From a virus: a DNA stretch of 5,463 nt. The stretch lies in the IMG/VR virus record IMGVR_UViG_3300011982_000240, positions 1-5,463 of that record; one strand, given 5' to 3'. Under the pieces are notes generated by a model. The model ran no database searches, was not told the origin of the DNA, and saw nothing but the letters and a program-made list of their open reading frames with translations. Positions 1-5,463 of the stretch are shown here, piece by piece (position 1 is the stretch's first letter; every line of letters starts with the position of its first letter). Position numbers and translations under genes: made by a program.

Positions 1-2
1 TT

Positions 3-662
3 CTGAACATCATTAAGATCTAAATAAGTACAATTAATATAAGCTAACTTTTTAGGGTCATATGATTTATAAAAAGACGTATAACGAGGGATAAAAGTAA
101 ATTTAAGACCACCAAACAACAACGGATAAAATTCATACGTATCTGATAACGTTGATGTACCATCCGCACATTCCTTAATTGTTATCTTTTTAGAAATTCT
201 CCTGGCAACAGAAAATACTCTTAAACAATTAGAAAGTAAATACATTTCATCAGTTAAATTTCTAAGCTTTAAATCAATATCAAACGTTTGAGAAAACAAA
301 TAAATCTTAAGTTTATATTGTCTCTGGTATTTAAAAAAATCTCTTACCTGTGGTTTGAAATTTTTAAAATCTCGATTGTCCCAGATCATACCTACTTCAT
401 CAATTAAAACAGTCGAGTTAGGCTCAAAAGTCATATTTCCGATATCATCCGTATTAAAAAGATATGTACTTGGAATTTCTACCGTTGAATATACTTTACG
501 TTTTTTCTTTAACTCTCTTAAAGCAATCTTCGTAAGTGTAGTTGTCTTTCCACTCCCCTTTTTCCCAAAAATCATAATGAGCTTATAAGGGTTAACATAT
601 TTATCTGTAAGCTTTAGAAACAAGAACATTGATAAAATCAAAATTAAAATAAATTTAATCAT
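3..662 (-). CDS. Zot / pI-like P-loop NTPase (filamentous-phage assembly ATPase), N-terminal 220 codons; the C-terminus lies beyond the left edge
   Basis: Absent from the ORF track because it runs off the window. Hand translation of the reverse complement from ATG 662..660 gives an unbroken frame: MIKFILILILSMFLFLKLTDKYVNPYKLIMIFGKKGSGKTTTLTKIALRELKKKRKVYSTVEIPSTYLFNTDDIGNMTFEPNSTVLIDEVGMIWDNRDFKNFKPQVRDFFKYQRQYKLKIYLFSQTFDIDLKLRNLTDEMYLLSNCLRVFSVARRISKKITIKECADGTSTLSDTYEFYPLLFGGLKFTFIPRYTSFYKSYDPKKLAYINCTYLDLNDVQ. Walker A is GKKGSGKT (nt 543..566). Walker B is VLIDE (396..410), followed by W-x-x-R and a KIYLFSQ-x-x-DID block, the layout typical of the Zot family. The start overlaps the upstream stop as ATGA. 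An alternative start at M30 (575..573) would place the P-loop at the extreme N-terminus, as in classical Zot, but it has no SD. Confidence 0.85.
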   Translation of the reverse strand, partial: MIKFILILILSMFLFLKLTDKYVNPYKLIMIFGKKGSGKTTTLTKIALRELKKKRKVYSTVEIPSTYLFNTDDIGNMTFEPNSTVLIDEVGMIWDNRDFKNFKPQVRDFFKYQRQYKLKIYLFSQTFDIDLKLRNLTDEMYLLSNCLRVFSVARRISKKITIKECADGTSTLSDTYEFYPLLFGGLKFTFIPRYTSFYKSYDPKKLAYINCTYLDLNDVQ

Positions 663-796
663 TGCATTAACCTTTTAGTAAAAAACGAAAATAAACAATC
701 AACTAATACAAAGCAAAAGAAAATAACAACAAAATTAGATGTATAAATCATCTTAATAGCATTGATAACAAAATTAACAATTAAACTAATTTCCAT
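659..796 (-). CDS. 45-aa hydrophobic small protein (below track cutoff), translationally coupled to the ATPase gene
   Basis: Hand translation gives MEISLIVNFVINAIKMIYTSNFVVIFFCFVLVDCLFSFFTKRLMQ. It has one predicted TM segment and a basic C-terminus. Its TGA (661..659) overlaps the ATPase ATG (662..660) as ATGA. There is no SD directly upstream; the nearest (AAAGGTGGGAG, 821..831) sits on the far side of the terminator hairpin. Confidence 0.45.
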   Translation of the reverse strand: MEISLIVNFVINAIKMIYTSNFVVIFFCFVLVDCLFSFFTKRLMQ

Positions 797-822
797 AAAA
801 TAAAGGGAGCTTAACAGCTCCC
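797..822 (-). terminator. Rho-independent terminator immediately after the second coat-like gene
   Basis: On the minus strand the sequence reads GGGAGCT-GTTA-AGCTCCC (7-bp stem at 816..822 / 805..811, 4-nt loop) followed by TTTATTTT (804..797). It starts 10 nt after the stop codon at 833..835. Confidence 0.6.
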
Positions 823-832
823 ACCTTTCTAC

Positions 833-1024
833 CTAGTTTCGAGAGAGCAAACGACCAAATATACCGATAGCGCCACCGACAACCAAGAAACCTACTGTAA
901 GTAACAAAAGCGGAGTACTTGTTATCGTACTTGCGATTGTACCTACATGTGCAAAAATCGCATTAGCAATTAAAGCAATTGACTTTAACAATTCGACCAT
1001 AGGGTTAACAGCTTCACCTCCCAT
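833..1024 (-). CDS. Major-coat-like small membrane protein, paralog B (63 aa)
   Basis: Track ORF MGGEAVNPMVELLKSIALIANAIFAHVGTIASTITSTPLLLLTVGFLVVGGAIGIFGRLLSRN. It has a strong SD (AGGAGG-TTTGT-ATG). The architecture matches inovirus major coat proteins: an amphipathic N-part, a Gly-rich TM helix and a basic C-terminal tail (R..R). A terminator follows the gene. It is a paralog of 1038..1205. Confidence 0.7.
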   Translation of the reverse strand: MGGEAVNPMVELLKSIALIANAIFAHVGTIASTITSTPLLLLTVGFLVVGGAIGIFGRLLSRN

Positions 1025-1037
1025 ACAAACCTCCTAA

Positions 1038-1205
1038 CTAATTTCTAGATAATAAACGACCGAAAATTCCAACAGCACCACCAACAACCAAGAAACCTAC
1101 TGTAAGTAGTAATAATGGTGTTGTAGTGATTGTTGTAGCGATTGTACCGACATACTTAAAAATTTCTGCAGCAACAAGAGCAATACTAGCAAGTAACGCT
1201 TCCAT
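1038..1205 (-). CDS. Major-coat-like small membrane protein, paralog A (55 aa)
   Basis: I trim the track ORF (1259 start) to ATG 1205..1203, which is preceded by GAAAGGGGGAAAGT: MEALLASIALVAAEIFKYVGTIATTITTTPLLLLTVGFLVVGGAVGIFGRLLSRN. The track's 18-aa extension overlaps the preceding 49-aa ORF in another frame and has no SD. Confidence 0.7.
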   Translation of the reverse strand: MEALLASIALVAAEIFKYVGTIATTITTTPLLLLTVGFLVVGGAVGIFGRLLSRN

Positions 1206-1218
1206 ACTTTCCCCCTTT

Positions 1219-1368
1219 CTATGACTTATTAGAAGTGCTATTAACCACCAAATTAACAATTAAGGCAATAACACTGAATAAGACGAATATACTCAATAAC
1301 CAAGATGAAATAACAATAGCTAACCAATCAGACATAAGCTTAAAGATAAAATTAACAACTTGTATCAT
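1219..1368 (-). CDS. 49-aa hydrophobic small protein (below track cutoff)
   Basis: Hand translation gives MIQVVNFIFKLMSDWLAIVISSWLLSIFVLFSVIALIVNLVVNSTSNKS. The SD is GGTGG-TAAGAA-ATG. Its ATG (1368..1366) overlaps the upstream TGA (1367..1365) as ATGA. Confidence 0.55.
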   Translation of the reverse strand: MIQVVNFIFKLMSDWLAIVISSWLLSIFVLFSVIALIVNLVVNSTSNKS

Positions 1369-1511
1369 TTCTTACCACCTACCCAAAAGAGAGTAGATTG
1401 AAGAATATTAAAAGCAACAAGAACAATCACAGTAAGAACAACAACACTAAGAAATTGACTAAGAAATGGATAATCATTTTTTCCCAGGAACACCATAACT
1501 TGATCTATCAT
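1365..1511 (-). CDS. 48-aa hydrophobic small protein (below track cutoff)
   Basis: Hand translation gives MIDQVMVFLGKNDYPFLSQFLSVVVLTVIVLVAFNILQSTLFWVGGKK. The SD is AAGGGGG-TTTGTAAG-ATG. Its ATG (1511..1509) overlaps the upstream TGA (1510..1508) as ATGA. It has one TM segment and a KK tail. Confidence 0.55.
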   Translation of the reverse strand: MIDQVMVFLGKNDYPFLSQFLSVVVLTVIVLVAFNILQSTLFWVGGKK

Positions 1512-1870
1512 CTTACAAACCCCCTTAACATTTTGAACAAACAATAAACAGAAACAATAAACGAAACAAACAAGTAAATATAATCTAAATTCCGATACAC
1601 ATTAGACATTGCATTAAAACGGATATTAGAAGCATTAGTTATATAACGTGTCTGTGATGTATATCCGTTAGTCCAGTAATAACTAGCGTACACACTAGGT
1701 GATAAAGTTATAATCGTGTGATTATAATTTTTATCTTTATATAAATAAATATGTCCAGAAGAAGTATTAGTTAAATCTTTGTCATTTATAAACTTTACTC
1801 TGTCACAATCTACAAAATAAGTACCGCCCTGGTCACCATCAAATGTAACTGTGCATCCTGTATCACTCAT
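1508..1870 (-). CDS. 120-aa C-terminally anchored protein of unknown function (candidate minor virion or assembly protein)
   Basis: I trim the track ORF from its GTG at 1879 to ATG 1870..1868, which follows the SD AGAGGTGA. The product starts MSDTGCTVTFDGDQGG and ends LDYIYLFVSFIVSVYCLFKMLRGFVR. The soluble N-domain is rich in Y, N and T, there is no signal peptide, and there is a single C-terminal TM. The start overlaps the upstream stop (ATGAGTGA, 1863..1870). Confidence 0.65.
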   Translation of the reverse strand: MSDTGCTVTFDGDQGGTYFVDCDRVKFINDKDLTNTSSGHIYLYKDKNYNHTIITLSPSVYASYYWTNGYTSQTRYITNASNIRFNAMSNVYRNLDYIYLFVSFIVSVYCLFKMLRGFVR

Positions 1871-2063
1871 CCTTATCACCTCTGAAAGTATGCCCCTGTG
1901 AACGACTAGGAACAGCCATCAACGAACGAATAAGAACTCCGAATATCAACACACTAAGTGCAATCCAACCTAATGTAACACCATTGAAAATCTGAGCCTT
2001 ATCAAAAATAAAATCTACAAATTTAAAATAAATTTGAAACAATAACTCTAAAGCTTCAGCCAT
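1863..2063 (-). CDS. 66-aa single-TM small protein
   Basis: I trim the track ORF (2096) to ATG 2063..2061, which lies 7 nt after the SD GGGAGA (2076..2071): MAEALELLFQIYFKFVDFIFDKAQIFNGVTLGWIALSVLIFGVLIRSLMAVPSRSQGHTFRGDKDE. The upstream gene's TGA (2067..2065) sits 1 nt before this ATG. Confidence 0.6.
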   Translation of the reverse strand: MAEALELLFQIYFKFVDFIFDKAQIFNGVTLGWIALSVLIFGVLIRSLMAVPSRSQGHTFRGDKDE

Positions 2064-2064
2064 A

Positions 2065-2280
2065 TCAATTTCTCCCAAGAATAAATAAAATAACATAGAT
2101 ACTAATAGCGGCTAAAACAAAAGGAATCAAAATCATAGGCATTAGAGCTACACTATTAGTAAGAAATAAAACAAATGATGGCAACTTAGAAATAAGATTA
2201 ACAAGTGAAGAAATAGCATTAAAAATAAATGTAAGAAGAGAACCAAGCGTATCAACAAACGTTTTAAGAAAATCTAACAT
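2065..2280 (-). CDS. 71-aa polytopic hydrophobic protein (pVI-like by size, hydrophobicity and position after the adsorption-protein gene)
   Basis: Track ORF MLDFLKTFVDTLGSLLTFIFNAISSLVNLISKLPSFVLFLTNSVALMPMILIPFVLAAISIYVILFILGRN. The SD AGGTGA lies inside the end of the upstream gene. It has two to three hydrophobic segments and a GRN tail. Confidence 0.65.
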   Translation of the reverse strand: MLDFLKTFVDTLGSLLTFIFNAISSLVNLISKLPSFVLFLTNSVALMPMILIPFVLAAISIYVILFILGRN

Positions 2281-2283
2281 ATA

Positions 2284-3342
2284 TCACCTATTTCTAAGTT
2301 TACCGATTAAAACTAATGCAATTCCTAACGTAAGACAGAACATCAAAACATGCTCGAATGGTGTATTAACAACAAGCTTAGTATACGTATCAGAGACAAA
2401 CTTCATAGAATTAATAAACTTTGAATTTGTGAATAACTTAGGCTTAGTATCAATCTTACCTAGATTGTTATTTAAATCATTACTAAACTGTTGTTCTGTA
2501 TCATGAAGCTGATTAGATGATTCATCAAACTTAGAACGAGTGTTATCAACTAAACCTAAAGACTCTTTTAACTTTGGATCATTAGCATAACCACCCATCA
2601 ACGCTATAAGCTCATCGAACTTTTTAACTGTCGTAGCCTTAAAATCATTAATCGCACTAACTGAAGATGTAGGAAGTCCAAAACGAGAACGCTCCAGATC
2701 TGTTAACTGCTTTTCCTGTTTCAAAAGTACAGGAACAACAATCAAATCAGTAACACCTGCTAAATCAGGAAAATCAATGGAAAAAATACGTTCACCAGGC
2801 TTAAAGCGATAAGCATAATGGAACATAGGAGTACTAGAAGCAGACATAACATATTGAGCAAATAACAATTCAACATTACTTATAACTCCTTTCGTCTCAC
2901 GCCCTATATAGACGCTAGACCAAATTTGACGACTAGATAAAAATTCTAAATATACATAATTATCGTAATCGCTGAACGATAGAAAAGACTTTGGATCATA
3001 CGTACCTGTATAGCGCCAATTTCCACTAATAGATGGAAGTTGAGCTACAAATCTATCTGTAGAAGTAGCAACTTGTGTACCTGTTTGAATAAATCTACAT
3101 GTAAAACCTGATGTAACAGTTGACTTAGAATCACAATACAATGAATAAGTAGCTCCCTGTATCGTCTGACCTGAAACCCCTACACCTGTAGCATGATTAG
3201 ATAAACCCTTAGAATCAAAATAAGCATATGCATCTATAGAATCAAACGGAATAACATAACCGTCGTTATCTGCAAAAACAGGTAGAGAAACAAGTTCAAT
3301 ACCTATTAATAACGCTAACGTAATAACAAATATCCTTTTCAT
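2284..3342 (-). CDS. 352-aa secreted, C-terminally anchored protein; candidate pIII-like adsorption / minor coat protein
   Basis: The signal peptide is MKRIFVITLALLIGIELVSLPVFA, with cleavage expected before DNDG. A large soluble body follows, with an N-half that looks beta-rich and a polar, probably helical segment around residues 210-330. There is a single C-terminal TM, FEHVLMFCLTLGIALVLIGKLRNR. The SD AAAGGG lies 7 nt upstream. I recognise no sequence family. Confidence 0.7.
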   Translation of the reverse strand: MKRIFVITLALLIGIELVSLPVFADNDGYVIPFDSIDAYAYFDSKGLSNHATGVGVSGQTIQGATYSLYCDSKSTVTSGFTCRFIQTGTQVATSTDRFVAQLPSISGNWRYTGTYDPKSFLSFSDYDNYVYLEFLSSRQIWSSVYIGRETKGVISNVELLFAQYVMSASSTPMFHYAYRFKPGERIFSIDFPDLAGVTDLIVVPVLLKQEKQLTDLERSRFGLPTSSVSAINDFKATTVKKFDELIALMGGYANDPKLKESLGLVDNTRSKFDESSNQLHDTEQQFSNDLNNNLGKIDTKPKLFTNSKFINSMKFVSDTYTKLVVNTPFEHVLMFCLTLGIALVLIGKLRNR

Positions 3343-3359
3343 TTCTCTACCCTTTCAAA

Positions 3360-3509
3360 CTACTTAACACCTTCAATAATGAACTTTGACTCTTTAGTTA
3401 CGTACGTTTCTAGAGTGTAACCATTCTTGAACGTAATAACCATGACATCATACGGATTACCAGCTTTACTAGTTTTCTGTACAAAATTAATCTTTACAAA
3501 CTGTTCCAT
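3360..3509 (-). CDS. 49-aa soluble small protein (below track cutoff); candidate ssDNA-binding (gV-position) protein, function unproven
   Basis: Hand translation gives MEQFVKINFVQKTSKAGNPYDVMVITFKNGYTLETYVTKESKFIIEGVK. The SD is strong (AAAGGTGG-TAAC-ATG). There is no TM segment, and the alternating pattern suggests beta strands. It lies between the rep/regulator genes and the structural genes. Confidence 0.5.
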   Translation of the reverse strand: MEQFVKINFVQKTSKAGNPYDVMVITFKNGYTLETYVTKESKFIIEGVK

Positions 3510-3524
3510 GTTACCACCTTTCTA

Positions 3525-3542
3525 ATAAAAATAGTACCAATA
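3525..3542 (-). promoter_or_regulatory. Copy 2 of a conserved 18-nt intergenic motif; possible extended -10 promoter for the 49-aa ORF and structural operon
   Basis: The minus strand reads TATTGGTACTATTTTTAT, matching 3795..3812 at 16 of 18 positions. It contains TGg-TACTAT about 20 nt upstream of the SD and ATG at 3509. Confidence 0.35.
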
Positions 3543-3563
3543 TTTTTATGCATGTAATGTATG

Positions 3564-3773
3564 TTATGCGATTTTAATTGATTCCGAAAAATCAATAATC
3601 GCACAATACAATAAATTTAACTTTGAAATAGACAATTCATAATCAAATACATCATCTTTCATAAACTTAGAAAACGCTGATTGATTAATGCCTAAATCTT
3701 TAAGAAAAGAATTAAACTTAATGTATTTCTTACACGTAGCGAAGTACGAACGATAGTCCGACTTCGTTAACAT
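3564..3773 (-). CDS. 69-aa small helix-turn-helix DNA-binding protein (putative transcriptional regulator)
   Basis: Track ORF. The segment FLKDLGINQSAFSKFMK has the helix, short turn, recognition-helix pattern of small XRE/Cro-like HTH proteins. The SD is strong (AAGGAGGT-ATCAATTT-ATG). Confidence 0.6.
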   Translation of the reverse strand: MLTKSDYRSYFATCKKYIKFNSFLKDLGINQSAFSKFMKDDVFDYELSISKLNLLYCAIIDFSESIKIA

Positions 3774-3794
3774 AAATTGATACCTCCTTACACC

Positions 3795-3812
3795 ATAAAT
3801 ATACTACCAATA
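3795..3812 (-). promoter_or_regulatory. Copy 1 of the conserved 18-nt intergenic motif; possible extended -10 promoter for the HTH gene
   Basis: The minus strand reads TATTGGTAGTATATTTAT and contains TGg-TAGTAT / TATATT. A possible -35 (TTTACT) lies 17 nt upstream of TATATT, inside the rep 3' end. Confidence 0.35.
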
Positions 3813-3817
3813 AAAAA

Positions 3818-4678
3818 TTAAGTAAATAAGAAATCAATTTTTTTCATCTCTTCATCTGTTAAGAATACAGTCTGTTCCTTAAAACCTACCTGGAATTGCT
3901 TTTTTGAATCAAATTTGAACTCTGTTATATCTTTTCCATCGACAATATGAGCAATGATAGAAAGTACATAAGTGTTACTATGAAGCATTGTAGCAACTTT
4001 CGGTAAATTTAAATTCCTGGAATGCATTATCTTTTTACGACCAAATAAACGACTATCAATATCTTTGTACAAATACTTACAGACATAAAGAGCAACGTTA
4101 AAGCGATCATCAGCAAGCTTTAAATCAAATGCAGACGTGAAACCATATTTCCAATATTTGACATCATACATCTTTTTCTTTTCGTTTTGAACTGGGAGTA
4201 ACTCCCCCCCTACTTCGAGATTAGACAACAAATGATAGTGAACAGCTCCCCTCTTCTGAAACTCTGGCACGCACAAATAAGAAAAATCCGAGAAAATTTG
4301 TCTAATAGAAGTTAACCAGGAATTGAAACATTTATTTGCATAATCAATATCCTTTACGTTATCTGCAAATGTAAGAGTTAAAAAAGATTTCCAAATATCT
4401 TTATTTTCATAAGCCAAATCAATAACGAGTTTGCGACTTCTAAACAAGTTATCGAAACGACAAGACCCAAACTTATCACGTTCTTTTTTTGAGCAATGAG
4501 TAACAACAGAAATTTCTGCAGAATTTTTTGAAAAATTTTCACAATCTTGAAACTGTTCAAAACCACTTTCAACTTTCTGAATCGCAGAATCATAATCACG
4601 TATGATTAACTTACCATCAGAATATAACGTTAATCTTGAGTCATAATACTTAACAACTTGACTTCTTTCACATAGCAT
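3818..4678 (-). CDS. rep: HUH-superfamily rolling-circle replication initiator (phiX174 gpA / phage CRI-like Rep with two catalytic tyrosines)
   Basis: Track ORF, 286 aa. Motif I is FLTLTF (4367..4384). Motif II is the HUH sequence HYH, in AVHYHLL (4232..4240, checked as CAC TAT CAT). Motif III is YVCKYLYK (4064..4087, checked), with Y-x-x-x-Y spacing as in phiX174 gpA (YVAKYVNK). The SD is GGGGGG-TCT-ATG. Confidence 0.9.
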   Translation of the reverse strand: MLCERSQVVKYYDSRLTLYSDGKLIIRDYDSAIQKVESGFEQFQDCENFSKNSAEISVVTHCSKKERDKFGSCRFDNLFRSRKLVIDLAYENKDIWKSFLTLTFADNVKDIDYANKCFNSWLTSIRQIFSDFSYLCVPEFQKRGAVHYHLLSNLEVGGELLPVQNEKKKMYDVKYWKYGFTSAFDLKLADDRFNVALYVCKYLYKDIDSRLFGRKKIMHSRNLNLPKVATMLHSNTYVLSIIAHIVDGKDITEFKFDSKKQFQVGFKEQTVFLTDEEMKKIDFLFT

Positions 4679-4692
4679 AGACCCCCCAAAAA

Positions 4693-4721
4693 ATTATATT
4701 TGATACAATCGAGACTTTGAA
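4693..4721 (-). promoter_or_regulatory. Possible sigma-70-type promoter for rep
   Basis: The minus strand reads TTCAAA (4721..4716), 17 nt, TATAAT (4698..4693). One caveat applies: the -10 ends only 14 nt before the ATG, so the transcript would start at or inside the G6 SD. Either the leader is very short or this is not the real promoter. Confidence 0.3.
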
Positions 4722-4759
4722 TAGTGAGGCTTATATCAAGTAAAGGAAGCCTCACTATT
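4720..4759 (-). repeat. Perfect 13-bp inverted repeat with a 14-nt loop; candidate replication-origin (nick-site) hairpin
   Basis: The arms are AATAGTGAGGCTT (4720..4732) and AAGCCTCACTATT (4747..4759). The loop at 4733..4746 reads CCTTTACTTGATAT on the minus (coding) strand. The hairpin lies about 40 nt upstream of rep, and its distal arm abuts the putative -35. Confidence 0.5.
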
Positions 4760-4804
4760 TTGTTGCGGCAGAGATAGCCGAATCTTGCGCGCTACCGCTT
4801 GCCT

Positions 4805-4873
4805 AATCTTTAAAAAAATTGCTAAAGCACTATGATAAATTTTTCCGAATTTATCATTATTTTTTTAAAGATT
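4805..4873. repeat. 69-nt nested inverted repeat forming a long interrupted hairpin; candidate packaging signal, complementary-strand origin or terminator
   Basis: The outer arms are 15-bp perfect: AATCTTTAAAAAAAT (4805..4819) and ATTTTTTTAAAGATT (4859..4873). The inner stem is 10 bp (4832..4841 / 4848..4857, ATGATAAATT / AATTTATCAT) with the loop TTTCCG. It starts 1 nt after the stop of the 4875..5177 ORF. Confidence 0.55.
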
Positions 4874-4874
4874 T

Positions 4875-5177
4875 CTACAGAAAAACAATAGGTGCCGCAG
4901 ATTGAAGATCATCAAAAAGCAAAATTTGAAAGAAATCAACAGGGTAATCTCTATATGTATAAACAGAATAATGATGGCAAGAAAAATAACTAGACTGTTT
5001 ATAATGTTCTAAAAGTAATCTTAAATCTCTATTCCCAAACATACAGTACATACATTCATTGTCAGAAGAAGTAACAACAACAATAGAATCACTTAATAAA
5101 TTCAAGTGCTGTAAATGCTTAACTAAACTGCCAATATTAGAATATTTTTCTAAAAAACCTTTATCTTCGAAAATCAC
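4875..5177 (-). CDS. Hypothetical 100-aa protein (104 aa if started at GTG 5189); no ATG start available
   Basis: Track ORF. A frame open for over 100 codons in roughly 30% GC DNA is unlikely by chance. The SD AGAAGGTGG (5194..5186) is followed after 8 nt by GTG 5177..5175, which I prefer over the track's GTG at 5189 because that one lies inside the SD. It contains C-x2-C (C46, C49 in track numbering) and C71-H72-H73. Confidence 0.5.
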   Translation of the reverse strand: MIFEDKGFLEKYSNIGSLVKHLQHLNLLSDSIVVVTSSDNECMYCMFGNRDLRLLLEHYKQSSYFSCHHYSVYTYRDYPVDFFQILLFDDLQSAAPIVFL

Positions 5178-5221
5178 AAATAACACCACCTTCTAAAAAA
5201 ATAATATCCAAACGAAACATA

Positions 5222-5314
5222 ACGCTTAATTTTAGGAGCAAAAAACAAAAGAATCATAAGAATATGATATAAAATCGAAAATAAGGGCAAAAATAAGCGC
5301 ATTAAGGGCTTAAT
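5222..5314. promoter_or_regulatory. Cluster of short iterons and palindromes in the non-coding region upstream of the 100-aa ORF
   Basis: Tandem repeats AAAATAAGGGC (5278..5288) and AAAATAAGCGC (5290..5300) have a 12-nt period. The palindrome ATTAAG-GG-CTTAAT lies at 5301..5314. An inverted partial copy, GCTTAAT, lies at 5224..5230. A second palindrome, ATCATA-AGAA-TATGAT, lies at 5253..5268. Confidence 0.35.
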
Positions 5315-5318
5315 CATT

Positions 5319-5462
5319 CTAAACATGAGTATGAGTACATCCTTTCTTTTTTGACGCTCCTGTGCGACTGCGTGGGCGCACAGAGCGTTTCACAAATTCA
5401 ACAAGAGAAATAAAAGCAATCTTAAATTTATCTAATAACCACTTCCAGGAACTTAAATAACG
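5319..5462 (-). CDS. Possible 3' end (47 codons) of a gene entering from the right edge
   Basis: This is the only minus frame open from the edge: ..RYLSSWKWLLDKFKIAFISLVEFVKRSVRPRSRTGASKKKGCTHTHV, with the stop at 5321..5319. I roughly estimate a 5-10% chance of this arising at random, so support is weak. The GC-rich hairpin at 5354..5388 lies inside it. Confidence 0.3.
   Translation of the reverse strand, partial: RYLSSWKWLLDKFKIAFISLVEFVKRSVRPRSRTGASKKKGCTHTHV
5354..5388. repeat. GC-rich imperfect hairpin (12 bp with one bulged C)
   Basis: The arms are ACGCTC(C)TGTGCG (5354..5366) and CGCACAGAGCGT (5377..5388), with the loop ACTGCGTGGG. It is the strongest GC stem in the window. The T-run precedes it on the plus strand, so an A-run follows it on the minus strand, and it is not a canonical terminator in either direction. 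Confidence 0.5.
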
Positions 5463-5463
5463 T

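Follow-up and report, generated by a model that had tools for sequence, protein, structure and literature searches.

A conserved hairpin-loop motif upstream of a predicted gpA-type rep gene as the probable core of the plus-strand origin of a small filamentous phage

The DNA analysed here, hereafter the window, is the whole 5,463-nucleotide (nt) viral sequence IMGVR_UViG_3300011982_000240 of IMG/VR (positions 1 to 5,463), and the element in question is a perfect hairpin that lies just upstream of its rep gene. All sizeable open reading frames (ORFs) of the window are on the minus strand, and they encode a Zot-type assembly ATPase (Pfam Zot/AAA, phrog_25712), two small coat-like proteins, a 352-aa candidate adsorption protein and the 286-aa Rep. 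The Zot ORF leaves the window at position 1 and resumes in frame from 5463 for about 45 codons (1-662 + 5330-5463, minus strand), and this continuation adds a hydrophobic segment and a basic tail. Thus, the window is probably a complete circle of ~5.46 kb cut inside the Zot gene, and the "GC island" at 5340-5390 would be coding. The rep gene and the parts of the putative origin hairpin are as follows.

3818..4678, minus strand: rep, 286 aa, HUH rolling-circle initiator with FLTLTF, HYH (H147-H149) and Y198-x-x-K-Y202
4747..4759, minus strand (gene and viral strand): 5' arm of the hairpin, AATAGTGAGGCTT, perfect complement of 4720-4732
4733..4746, minus strand: loop of the hairpin, CCTTTACTTGATAT, 14 nt, holding the core TACTTGATA at 4742->4734
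4715..4732, minus strand: 3' arm AAGCCTCACTATT plus CAAAG, the window form of a family-wide 3' box and candidate Rep recognition sequence

When read on the plus strand, the arms are AATAGTGAGGCTT at 4720-4732 and AAGCCTCACTATT at 4747-4759, which are 100% complementary over 13 bp with 14 nt between them; a first-pass annotation of this DNA had described just such a stem and loop at 4720-4759, and both coordinates and sequence proved exact. On the gene strand the hairpin is upstream of rep, and 42 nt separate its end from the ATG start codon. No other perfect hairpin in the window with a loop of up to 20 nt is as long, and a stem of 13 bp was reached in only 1 of 100 dinucleotide shuffles. As single-stranded DNA it folded at -15 kcal/mol (z -5.6), and equal stability occurred in 0 of 200 shuffles. 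An Rfam search of the window gave no match. The loop includes the 9-mer ACTTGATAT, which is present in the window as a single copy on the minus strand (4741->4733), the strand of all genes, as had been stated at first pass; in inoviruses, the gene strand is the one that is packaged and nicked. The same 9-mer occurs in the phiX174 origin. NC_001422 annotates the phiX174 rep_origin at 4306, where the sequence is CAACTTG/ATATTAATAAC (here and below, a slash within a sequence marks the cleaved bond), confirming both the origin sequence given at first pass and the claimed identity of nine consecutive nt including the cleaved G/A step.

The protein encoded downstream of the hairpin matched Pfam PF23343 (REP_ORF2-G2P) with an E value of 1.4e-16 and 61 bits against a curated cut-off of 27.8, and phrog_3419 ("rolling circle DNA replication initiation") with an E value of 5e-23. 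FxTLTF, H147-Y-H149 and Y198-x-x-K201-Y202 were invariant in an alignment of 20 Rep sequences. The two-tyrosine stretch, which had been likened to that of gpA for its YVCKY motif, reads ALYVCKYLYKD (Y198, Y202), and the likeness held up further: hhalign aligned all three catalytic motifs of Rep with those of phiX174 gpA (E 1.9e-5, probability 78%), and gpA itself matched PF23343 above threshold (E 6e-8) as well as Phage_GPA PF05840 (E 6e-62). The window Rep gave no match to PF05840 and none to Rep_1 (PF01446) at E <= 0.1, and it matches neither PF05144 nor PF05155, both of which are matched by M13 gpII. At least 874 Rep homologs were found, and PF23343 was present in all 120 of the homologs listed. 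An AF2 (AlphaFold) model of Rep had a mean predicted local distance difference test score (pLDDT) of 79, and a fold search with it returned weak PDB matches (best E 0.05), the top ones being the HUH nucleases SIRV1 ORF119, Helitron and adeno-associated virus (AAV) Rep; a PDB sequence search with Rep detected no solved structure. Judged by its sequence, Rep is a gpA-type HUH protein.

To follow the element through related phages, loci were gathered from IMG/VR, GTDB genomes, metagenomes and exact-protein look-ups; the metagenome scan gave 12 loci only, and the remainder came via the exact-protein look-ups. The close clade of the window comprised ~20 distinct sequences, whose Rep aligned near full length with 41-94% identity; samples that carry close relatives include SRR959136 and ERZ28634828. 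Every one of these ~20 relatives had TACTTGAT in the loop of a hairpin that occupies the corresponding position 5' of rep, with loops of 6-22 nt and stems of 6-15 bp, and the core TACTTGATA was invariant in the 20-sequence alignment of the clade. Because MAFFT set the 5' arms in two registers, which would give miscounts, stem pairs were counted by a register-aware script instead; L135, with a stem of 9 bp, has a register outside what this script allowed. Two-sided compensatory changes were observed at no fewer than seven (at least 7) stem positions, with GAGGCTT paired with AAGCCTC being replaced by GAGTTATAT with ATATAACTC, GTGTGGTAT with ATACCACAC, and TTATGTGGCTTAT with ATAAGCCACATAA. The alignment check proposed in the first-pass annotation therefore came out as it had anticipated, with a conserved, strand-specific loop core and a covarying stem.

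Beyond the close clade, an unbiased count determined ACTTGAT to be the most widespread 7-mer upstream of rep, being present in 71 of 103 distinct loci, compared with 10 on the opposite strand of the 103 loci and with 3 of 87 for a control taken downstream. The core TACTTGATA occurred on the rep strand in 47 loci, and 3 occurrences were found on the other strand. An ungapped alignment of 45 sites showed that a block of ~32 nt surrounds the core, cTaT-TACTTGATA-GTAGTCTCATAaCTCaAAC, with GTAGTCTCATAACTCAAAC as the consensus of the 3' box across the family; in the window, the block is made up of the 3' arm and the following bases (TAAGCCTCACTATTCAAAG). A second clade carries AACTTGATTATAACCACACATC; in a third group, which consists mostly of Patescibacteria, the sequence is AACTTGATTATAACCACACATCTAA, located ~35 nt from the start codon of rep. 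When a position matrix was built from loci L007-L116, which do not include the window, the window loop site came first of 10,926 positions, with a score of 24.9 (z 6.2) and 0.8 for the next best. The 3' block stays conserved in loci without any 5' arm. Some loci have a simple hairpin as in the window, in others the stem also encloses an inner GC-rich hairpin (e.g., atgagactac-[GGGTGTGAAACACCC]-TACTTGATA-gtagtctcat), and the Patescibacteria group has none. What is deeply conserved is the linear core together with the 3' box; the hairpin is lineage-specific (window lineage and a few others) and represents one way to present the core.

In a sister clade from "Bacilli", 37 distinct loci (L008-L113) were found to carry the origin block, as TACTTGATAGTAGTCTCATA, within the rep ORF, towards its 5' end; in L041, for example, rep spans 1264-2199 and the motif is at 1322. 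The block keeps one constant frame, reading (L)LLDSSLI(T/S), which is open through to the catalytic core. The leucine codon directly after the motif was CTC in 34 of 34 cases, whereas CTC accounts for 3% of leucine codons elsewhere in those genes, indicating a constraint on the DNA and not only on the protein. The window block is non-coding, as the frames through it read TAC TTG ATA TAA and ACT TGA. Given that the same element is kept in coding and non-coding contexts, it acts in cis as a DNA site. In one large clade, therefore, one DNA stretch would be origin and protein-coding at once, a claim that is better supported but smaller than the common-ancestry reading taken up below. An origin doubling as coding sequence is also found in phiX174 and pT181.

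The structure of the hairpin, its conservation and covariation, the strand-specific core found family-wide, the type of Rep and the likeness to mapped origins lead us to propose, with a probability of about 0.8, that the hairpin is the core of the plus-strand (double-strand) rolling-circle origin of a small filamentous phage. Rep would recognise the conserved block of TACTTGATA and the 3' box, and in the window lineage the pairing of the 3' box with its upstream complement would leave the core unpaired in the loop, on the supercoiled replicative form or on the displaced single strand. Y198 or Y202 would then cut the gene strand, likeliest at G4737/A4736 (ACTTG/ATAT), with Rep remaining linked to the 5' phosphate and the free 3' OH serving as primer for the host polymerase. 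After one round, the second tyrosine would cut the regenerated site and the circle would be resealed, as in phiX174. Origin-bound Rep probably also represses its own gene, the rep promoter abutting the hairpin.

Several observations weigh against the hairpin being such an origin. At least one copy of ACTTGATAT was present in 24 of 200 dinucleotide shuffles of the window (~12%), somewhat higher than the few percent estimated at first pass, and a match to this word is by itself no proof. A cruciform would have to extrude spontaneously with a loop of 14 nt, which is large, and the close relatives L121 and L138 retain just 6 bp of stem. Furthermore, among 67 distinct loci only ~25% have a stem between the 3' box and its upstream complement that outperforms shuffled sequence, and thus a hairpin is not required family-wide. 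Hairpin-loop nick sites are found in pMV158, geminiviruses, circoviruses and Ff, and the window and its ~20 relatives likewise present the putative nick motif in the loop of a conserved, covarying stem, but the generalization that HUH Reps nick within a hairpin loop, on which the first-pass annotation had relied, does not extend to the family. The rep genes of Spiroplasma phage SpV1-C74 and bajarodino virus 41 are preceded by no recognisable motif of this kind. With the family matrix, the phiX174 origin came first of 10,772 positions and the M13 plus-strand origin first of 12,814, but the margins are small (z ~4.0-4.2 vs 3.7-3.8 for the runner-up; for M13 by itself, 4.0-4.1 vs 3.7-3.8 for the next-ranked position), and a flank-only matrix, without the core, finds no known origin, M13 and phiX174 included. 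Finally, the M13 register puts the nick one nt 5' of the phiX174 register.

By analogy with mapped origins, we favor, with some reserve, exactly the bond G4737/A4736 on the minus strand as the nick position, because of the phiX174 register and the pC194 cut; most of the remaining probability would fall on the neighboring bond T4738/G4737, one nt 5', because of the M13 register. That the element is the origin and is cut elsewhere, either in the Ff register (TACTT/GATA, T4738/G4737) or at another loop position, is the alternative that survives best, although we regard it as a minority possibility. The ungapped matrix alignment sets M13 TCTTTAATAgtggactc against TACTTGATAgtagtctc, the M13 nick follows CTTT (CTTT/AATAGTGG), and phage Rs551 has no A after the G (TACTTGTAGTA), all of which suit such a cut. 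However, the window Rep has the catalytic motifs and the Pfam family of gpA, which cuts CAACTTG/ATA, and not that of M13 gpII (PF05144); the closest DNA match is pC194, which is cut at CTTG/ATA; and a one-base gap would reconcile the M13 and phiX174 registers. The other sites at which the first-pass annotation had allowed for a nick, the GC island and "5222..5314 iterons", look like weaker candidates. Conservation of the GC island does not reach beyond the close clade, and the iterons come down to a single two-copy direct repeat of 11 nt (AAATAAGGGCA and AAATAAGCGCA, 12 nt apart, 5279-5301), which does exist but belongs to no larger repeat family. A nick at the 5' foot of the hairpin, based on the similarity of AAAATAGTGAGG to f1 TTTAATAGTGGAC, was considered and dropped, since this arm is the complement of the 3' box and is absent in most relatives.

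The intergenic region that holds the hairpin is 202 nt long and has two robust hairpins in its centroid fold (z -5.9). Its other features are as follows.

4687->4682, minus strand: ribosome-binding site GGGGGG, preceding rep
4693..4721, minus strand: promoter-like site for rep, with -35 TTCAAA (4721->4716), a 17-nt spacer and -10 TATAAT (4698->4693)
4778..4803, minus strand: GC-rich block GGCAAGCGGTAGCGCGCAAGATTCGG, just 5' of the hairpin; near-invariant GGCAAGCGnnAGCGCGCAAGnnTCG in 17 close relatives, with varying flanks
4805..4873, minus strand: long interrupted AT-rich hairpin with perfect inverted repeats of 15 bp and 10 bp, directly after the stop (4875) of the upstream 104-aa ORF

The order of blocks was the same in the 17 close relatives, namely, AT-rich hairpin, small hairpin plus T-run, GC block, origin hairpin, TTCAAA plus nATAAT, GGGGGG and ATG. 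The position of the AT-rich hairpin is conserved while its sequence covaries, and it is followed by the small covarying hairpin and T-run; the AT-rich hairpin could serve as a packaging signal, a terminator or both. The GC-rich block, for which the centroid fold gave no stable structure, may provide Rep with a second binding site or belong to the minus-strand origin. More distant relatives have a GC-rich hairpin just 5' of the core instead (GGGTGTGAAACACCC, GGCGAAGCC, GGGGCGCGCGCAGCGCGCCCC). The promoter-like site is the best match in the region (10 of 12 to consensus), and its -35 was invariant as TTCAAA in the 17 relatives, with a -10 of the nATAAT type.

This arrangement bears on the idea that the hairpin is mainly transcriptional, as an operator of the rep promoter or a terminator of the upstream gene, and that its nick-site match is coincidental. 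The promoter-like site shares 2 nt of its -35 with the 3' arm, namely, the final two bases of the hairpin, and Reps of pUB110-type plasmids are reported to act from the double-strand origin (dso) to shut off the rep promoter beside it (PMC5703833). We nevertheless consider a mainly transcriptional role very unlikely. There is no T-run at the hairpin and no terminator-like site was found; the loop sequence, and not the stem alone, is invariant; and the core is conserved inside rep coding sequence and in loci without a hairpin. TTGATA in the loop was also tried as a -35 box and dropped, as it has no -10 partner at 16-18 nt. Moreover, an operator role is compatible with an origin role rather than exclusive of it, and the promoter overlapping the hairpin foot suggests autoregulation, as reported for pUB110 RepU (PMC5703833).

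It is equally improbable that the hairpin is a minus-strand origin or a packaging signal instead of a nick site. The hairpin is stable, is on the packaged strand and lies in the only sizeable intergenic region. The Ff minus-strand origin and packaging signal are also hairpins in the intergenic region. Such signals, however, rely on structure and not on a loop sequence common with the nick sites of phiX174, pC194 and M13; the motif persists in relatives without the hairpin; and the separate, longer hairpin at 4805-4873 and the conserved GC block are available for those roles. Finally, chance, that is, a palindrome in an AT-rich genome whose loop happens to hold the phiX174 9-mer, could account for a word seen somewhere in 12% of shuffles, but it is effectively refuted by the hairpin length statistics, the conservation with covariation, the strand-specific 7-mer enrichment over 103 loci and the independent matrix match.

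Some further observations concern the hosts and the remaining genes. Relatives of rep were present in metagenome-assembled genomes (MAGs) of gut Bacilli, Erysipelotrichaceae, Mollicutes and many Patescibacteria (Falkowbacteria, Magasanikbacteria and Saccharibacteria) (L037-L116, GTDB contigs). Several MAGs labelled "Gammaproteobacteria" or "Muribaculaceae" hold phages of the types seen in the Patescibacteria and Bacilli groups, pointing to mistakes in binning or labelling. In the window, two tandem small ORFs (833-1024 + 1038-1205, minus strand) have a common C-terminal half, ...TPLLLLTVGFLVVGGA(I/V)GIFGRLLSRN, and look like duplicated major-coat-type proteins. A dif-like attachment site candidate, AAATCGCATAACATACATTACATGCAT on the gene strand, was found at 3549-3575 of the window, with similar sites in relatives (L133, 3560-3600 and 9100-9135; L139 and L140, ~2370-2400). 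L133 is a close relative integrated in a 153-kb bacterial contig, and both of its junctions share AAATCGCATAACATACATTAT; on the host side, TCGCATAA-CATACA-TTATGCGA forms a perfect dif-type palindrome, which a Xer-type tyrosine recombinase gene adjoins. Two tandem phage copies occurred on one 162-kb contig, and the L139 contig, like that of L133, points to a host with an integrated copy. Positions 3549-3575 thus look like a phage attachment site mimicking the host dif, and the phage, being without an integrase, probably uses the host Xer system. CTX-phi also uses the host Xer system.

For a specialist, a CTTGATA nick site in a hairpin loop beside a gpA-like Rep is an expected finding. Three things go further: how widely the core is conserved, that it lies inside rep in one clade, and that the origin resembles that of Ff although the initiators belong to different families. 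The group comprises more than 870 Rep homologs, many of them in prophages (Bacilli, Erysipelotrichaceae, Mollicutes-like and Patescibacteria genomes), none with a mapped origin. For these widespread uncultivated filamentous phages of gut and groundwater, the analysis offers a concrete predicted origin, with the nick placed to within one nt and a recognition block of ~32 nt. The block could be used as a search pattern for origin annotation and as a possible basis for single-strand-producing vectors in these hosts.

The window Rep clearly falls within the PF23343 Reps of inoviruses and plectroviruses, examples of which occur in Ralstonia phage Rs551, the bajarodino viruses and the Dulem viruses. 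The nearest published genomes found by tblastn were the faecal "bajarodino" and "Dulem" inoviruses, which are distantly related only. Published records of phages with such Reps (Rs551, bajarodino, Dulem) have no origin annotated, and literature searches found no paper describing the motif for these phages. Bajarodino virus 42 has a window-like architecture, with TACTTGAC as the loop of an 8-bp hairpin 74 nt upstream of rep (GTGAACCT-cTACTTGACtaa-AGGTTCAC), and Rs551 has a GC hairpin and then TACTTGTAGTAATAACACTT upstream of rep (CCCC-TACTTGTAGTAATAACACTT).

Compared with phiX174, whose origin is CAACTTG/ATATTAATAACACTATAGACCAC, the window has an identical 9-nt core ACTTGATAT including the cleaved G/A step, a CACTAT element downstream of the core, and a Rep that shares FxTLT, HxH, YxxKY and PF23343 with gpA; the sister clade further resembles phiX174 in having its origin inside rep. 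However, the phiX174 origin lies within gene A without a hairpin, whereas that of the window is intergenic and in a hairpin loop, and the virions are icosahedral and filamentous, respectively. Outside the core the similarity is weak, and the flank-only matrix misses the phiX174 origin; of a 30-nt origin with an AT-rich spacer and a downstream binding sequence, as in phiX174, the window has in common only the core and the CACTAT element.

The Ff phages (f1/M13/fd) have the same genome type and layout as the window phage, with an intergenic region upstream of the replication gene that contains several hairpins. The M13 nick is in a loop beside an 8-bp stem, GAGTCCAC with GTGGACTC, and relatives of the window have GAGACTAC with GTAGTCTC; in the matrix register, M13 TCTTTAATAgtggactcttgttccaaact stands against family TACTTGATAgtagtctcataactcaaact, and the M13 stem GTGGACTC corresponds to family GTAGTCTC. 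The M13 core, however, is CTTTAAT and not CTTGAT, with the nick mapped at CTTT/AAT (PMC11765958), and M13 gpII belongs to other Pfam families (PF05144 and PF05155).

The closest DNA match of the window element is the dso of plasmid pC194 (24 of 31 nt, shuffled-query p 0.04), where window CTTCCTTTACTTGAT-ATAAGCCTCACTATT aligned with pC194 CTTTCTTATCTTGATAATAAGGGTAACTATT, the best local alignment anywhere in the plasmid. The CTTGATA of pC194, which we take to be nicked at CTTG/ATA, is also located between short inverted repeats (CTTAT and ATAAG, read from the sequence). Local alignment of the window element with phiX174, M13, pUB110 and Rs551 did not reach their origins, and pC194 alone was matched; conversely, the ungapped matrix did not find the dso of pC194 and pUB110, because a one-base gap is needed. 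The pC194 ori sequence is given in PMC7072734, and in the pC194/pUB110 family the origin is upstream of rep, beside the rep promoter (PMC5703833), as in the window. The two systems differ in that pC194 RepA has one tyrosine and a glutamate (PMC5703833) whereas the window Rep has two tyrosines (YxxKY), in the much longer stem of the window (13 bp), and in being a plasmid and a phage replicon, respectively. Inovirus Reps fall in five HUH clusters and have often been exchanged with plasmids (Kazlauskas et al. 2019, PMC6668415), which fits the pC194 resemblance.

The widest reading of these comparisons, that ACTTGAT plus the 3' box is one ancient origin inherited with gpA-type Reps by filamentous phages (of Bacilli, Patescibacteria and Ralstonia), phiX174-like microviruses and pC194-type plasmids, and perhaps surviving in Ff, appears doubtful to us and is put forward only tentatively. 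If it were true, either Ff gpII took over a gpA-type origin or gpII would be a highly diverged relative. The link between the phiX174 and pC194 nick sites was noted long ago; the phages described here add a third Rep family with this core, which occurs in hairpin and non-hairpin and in coding and non-coding contexts.

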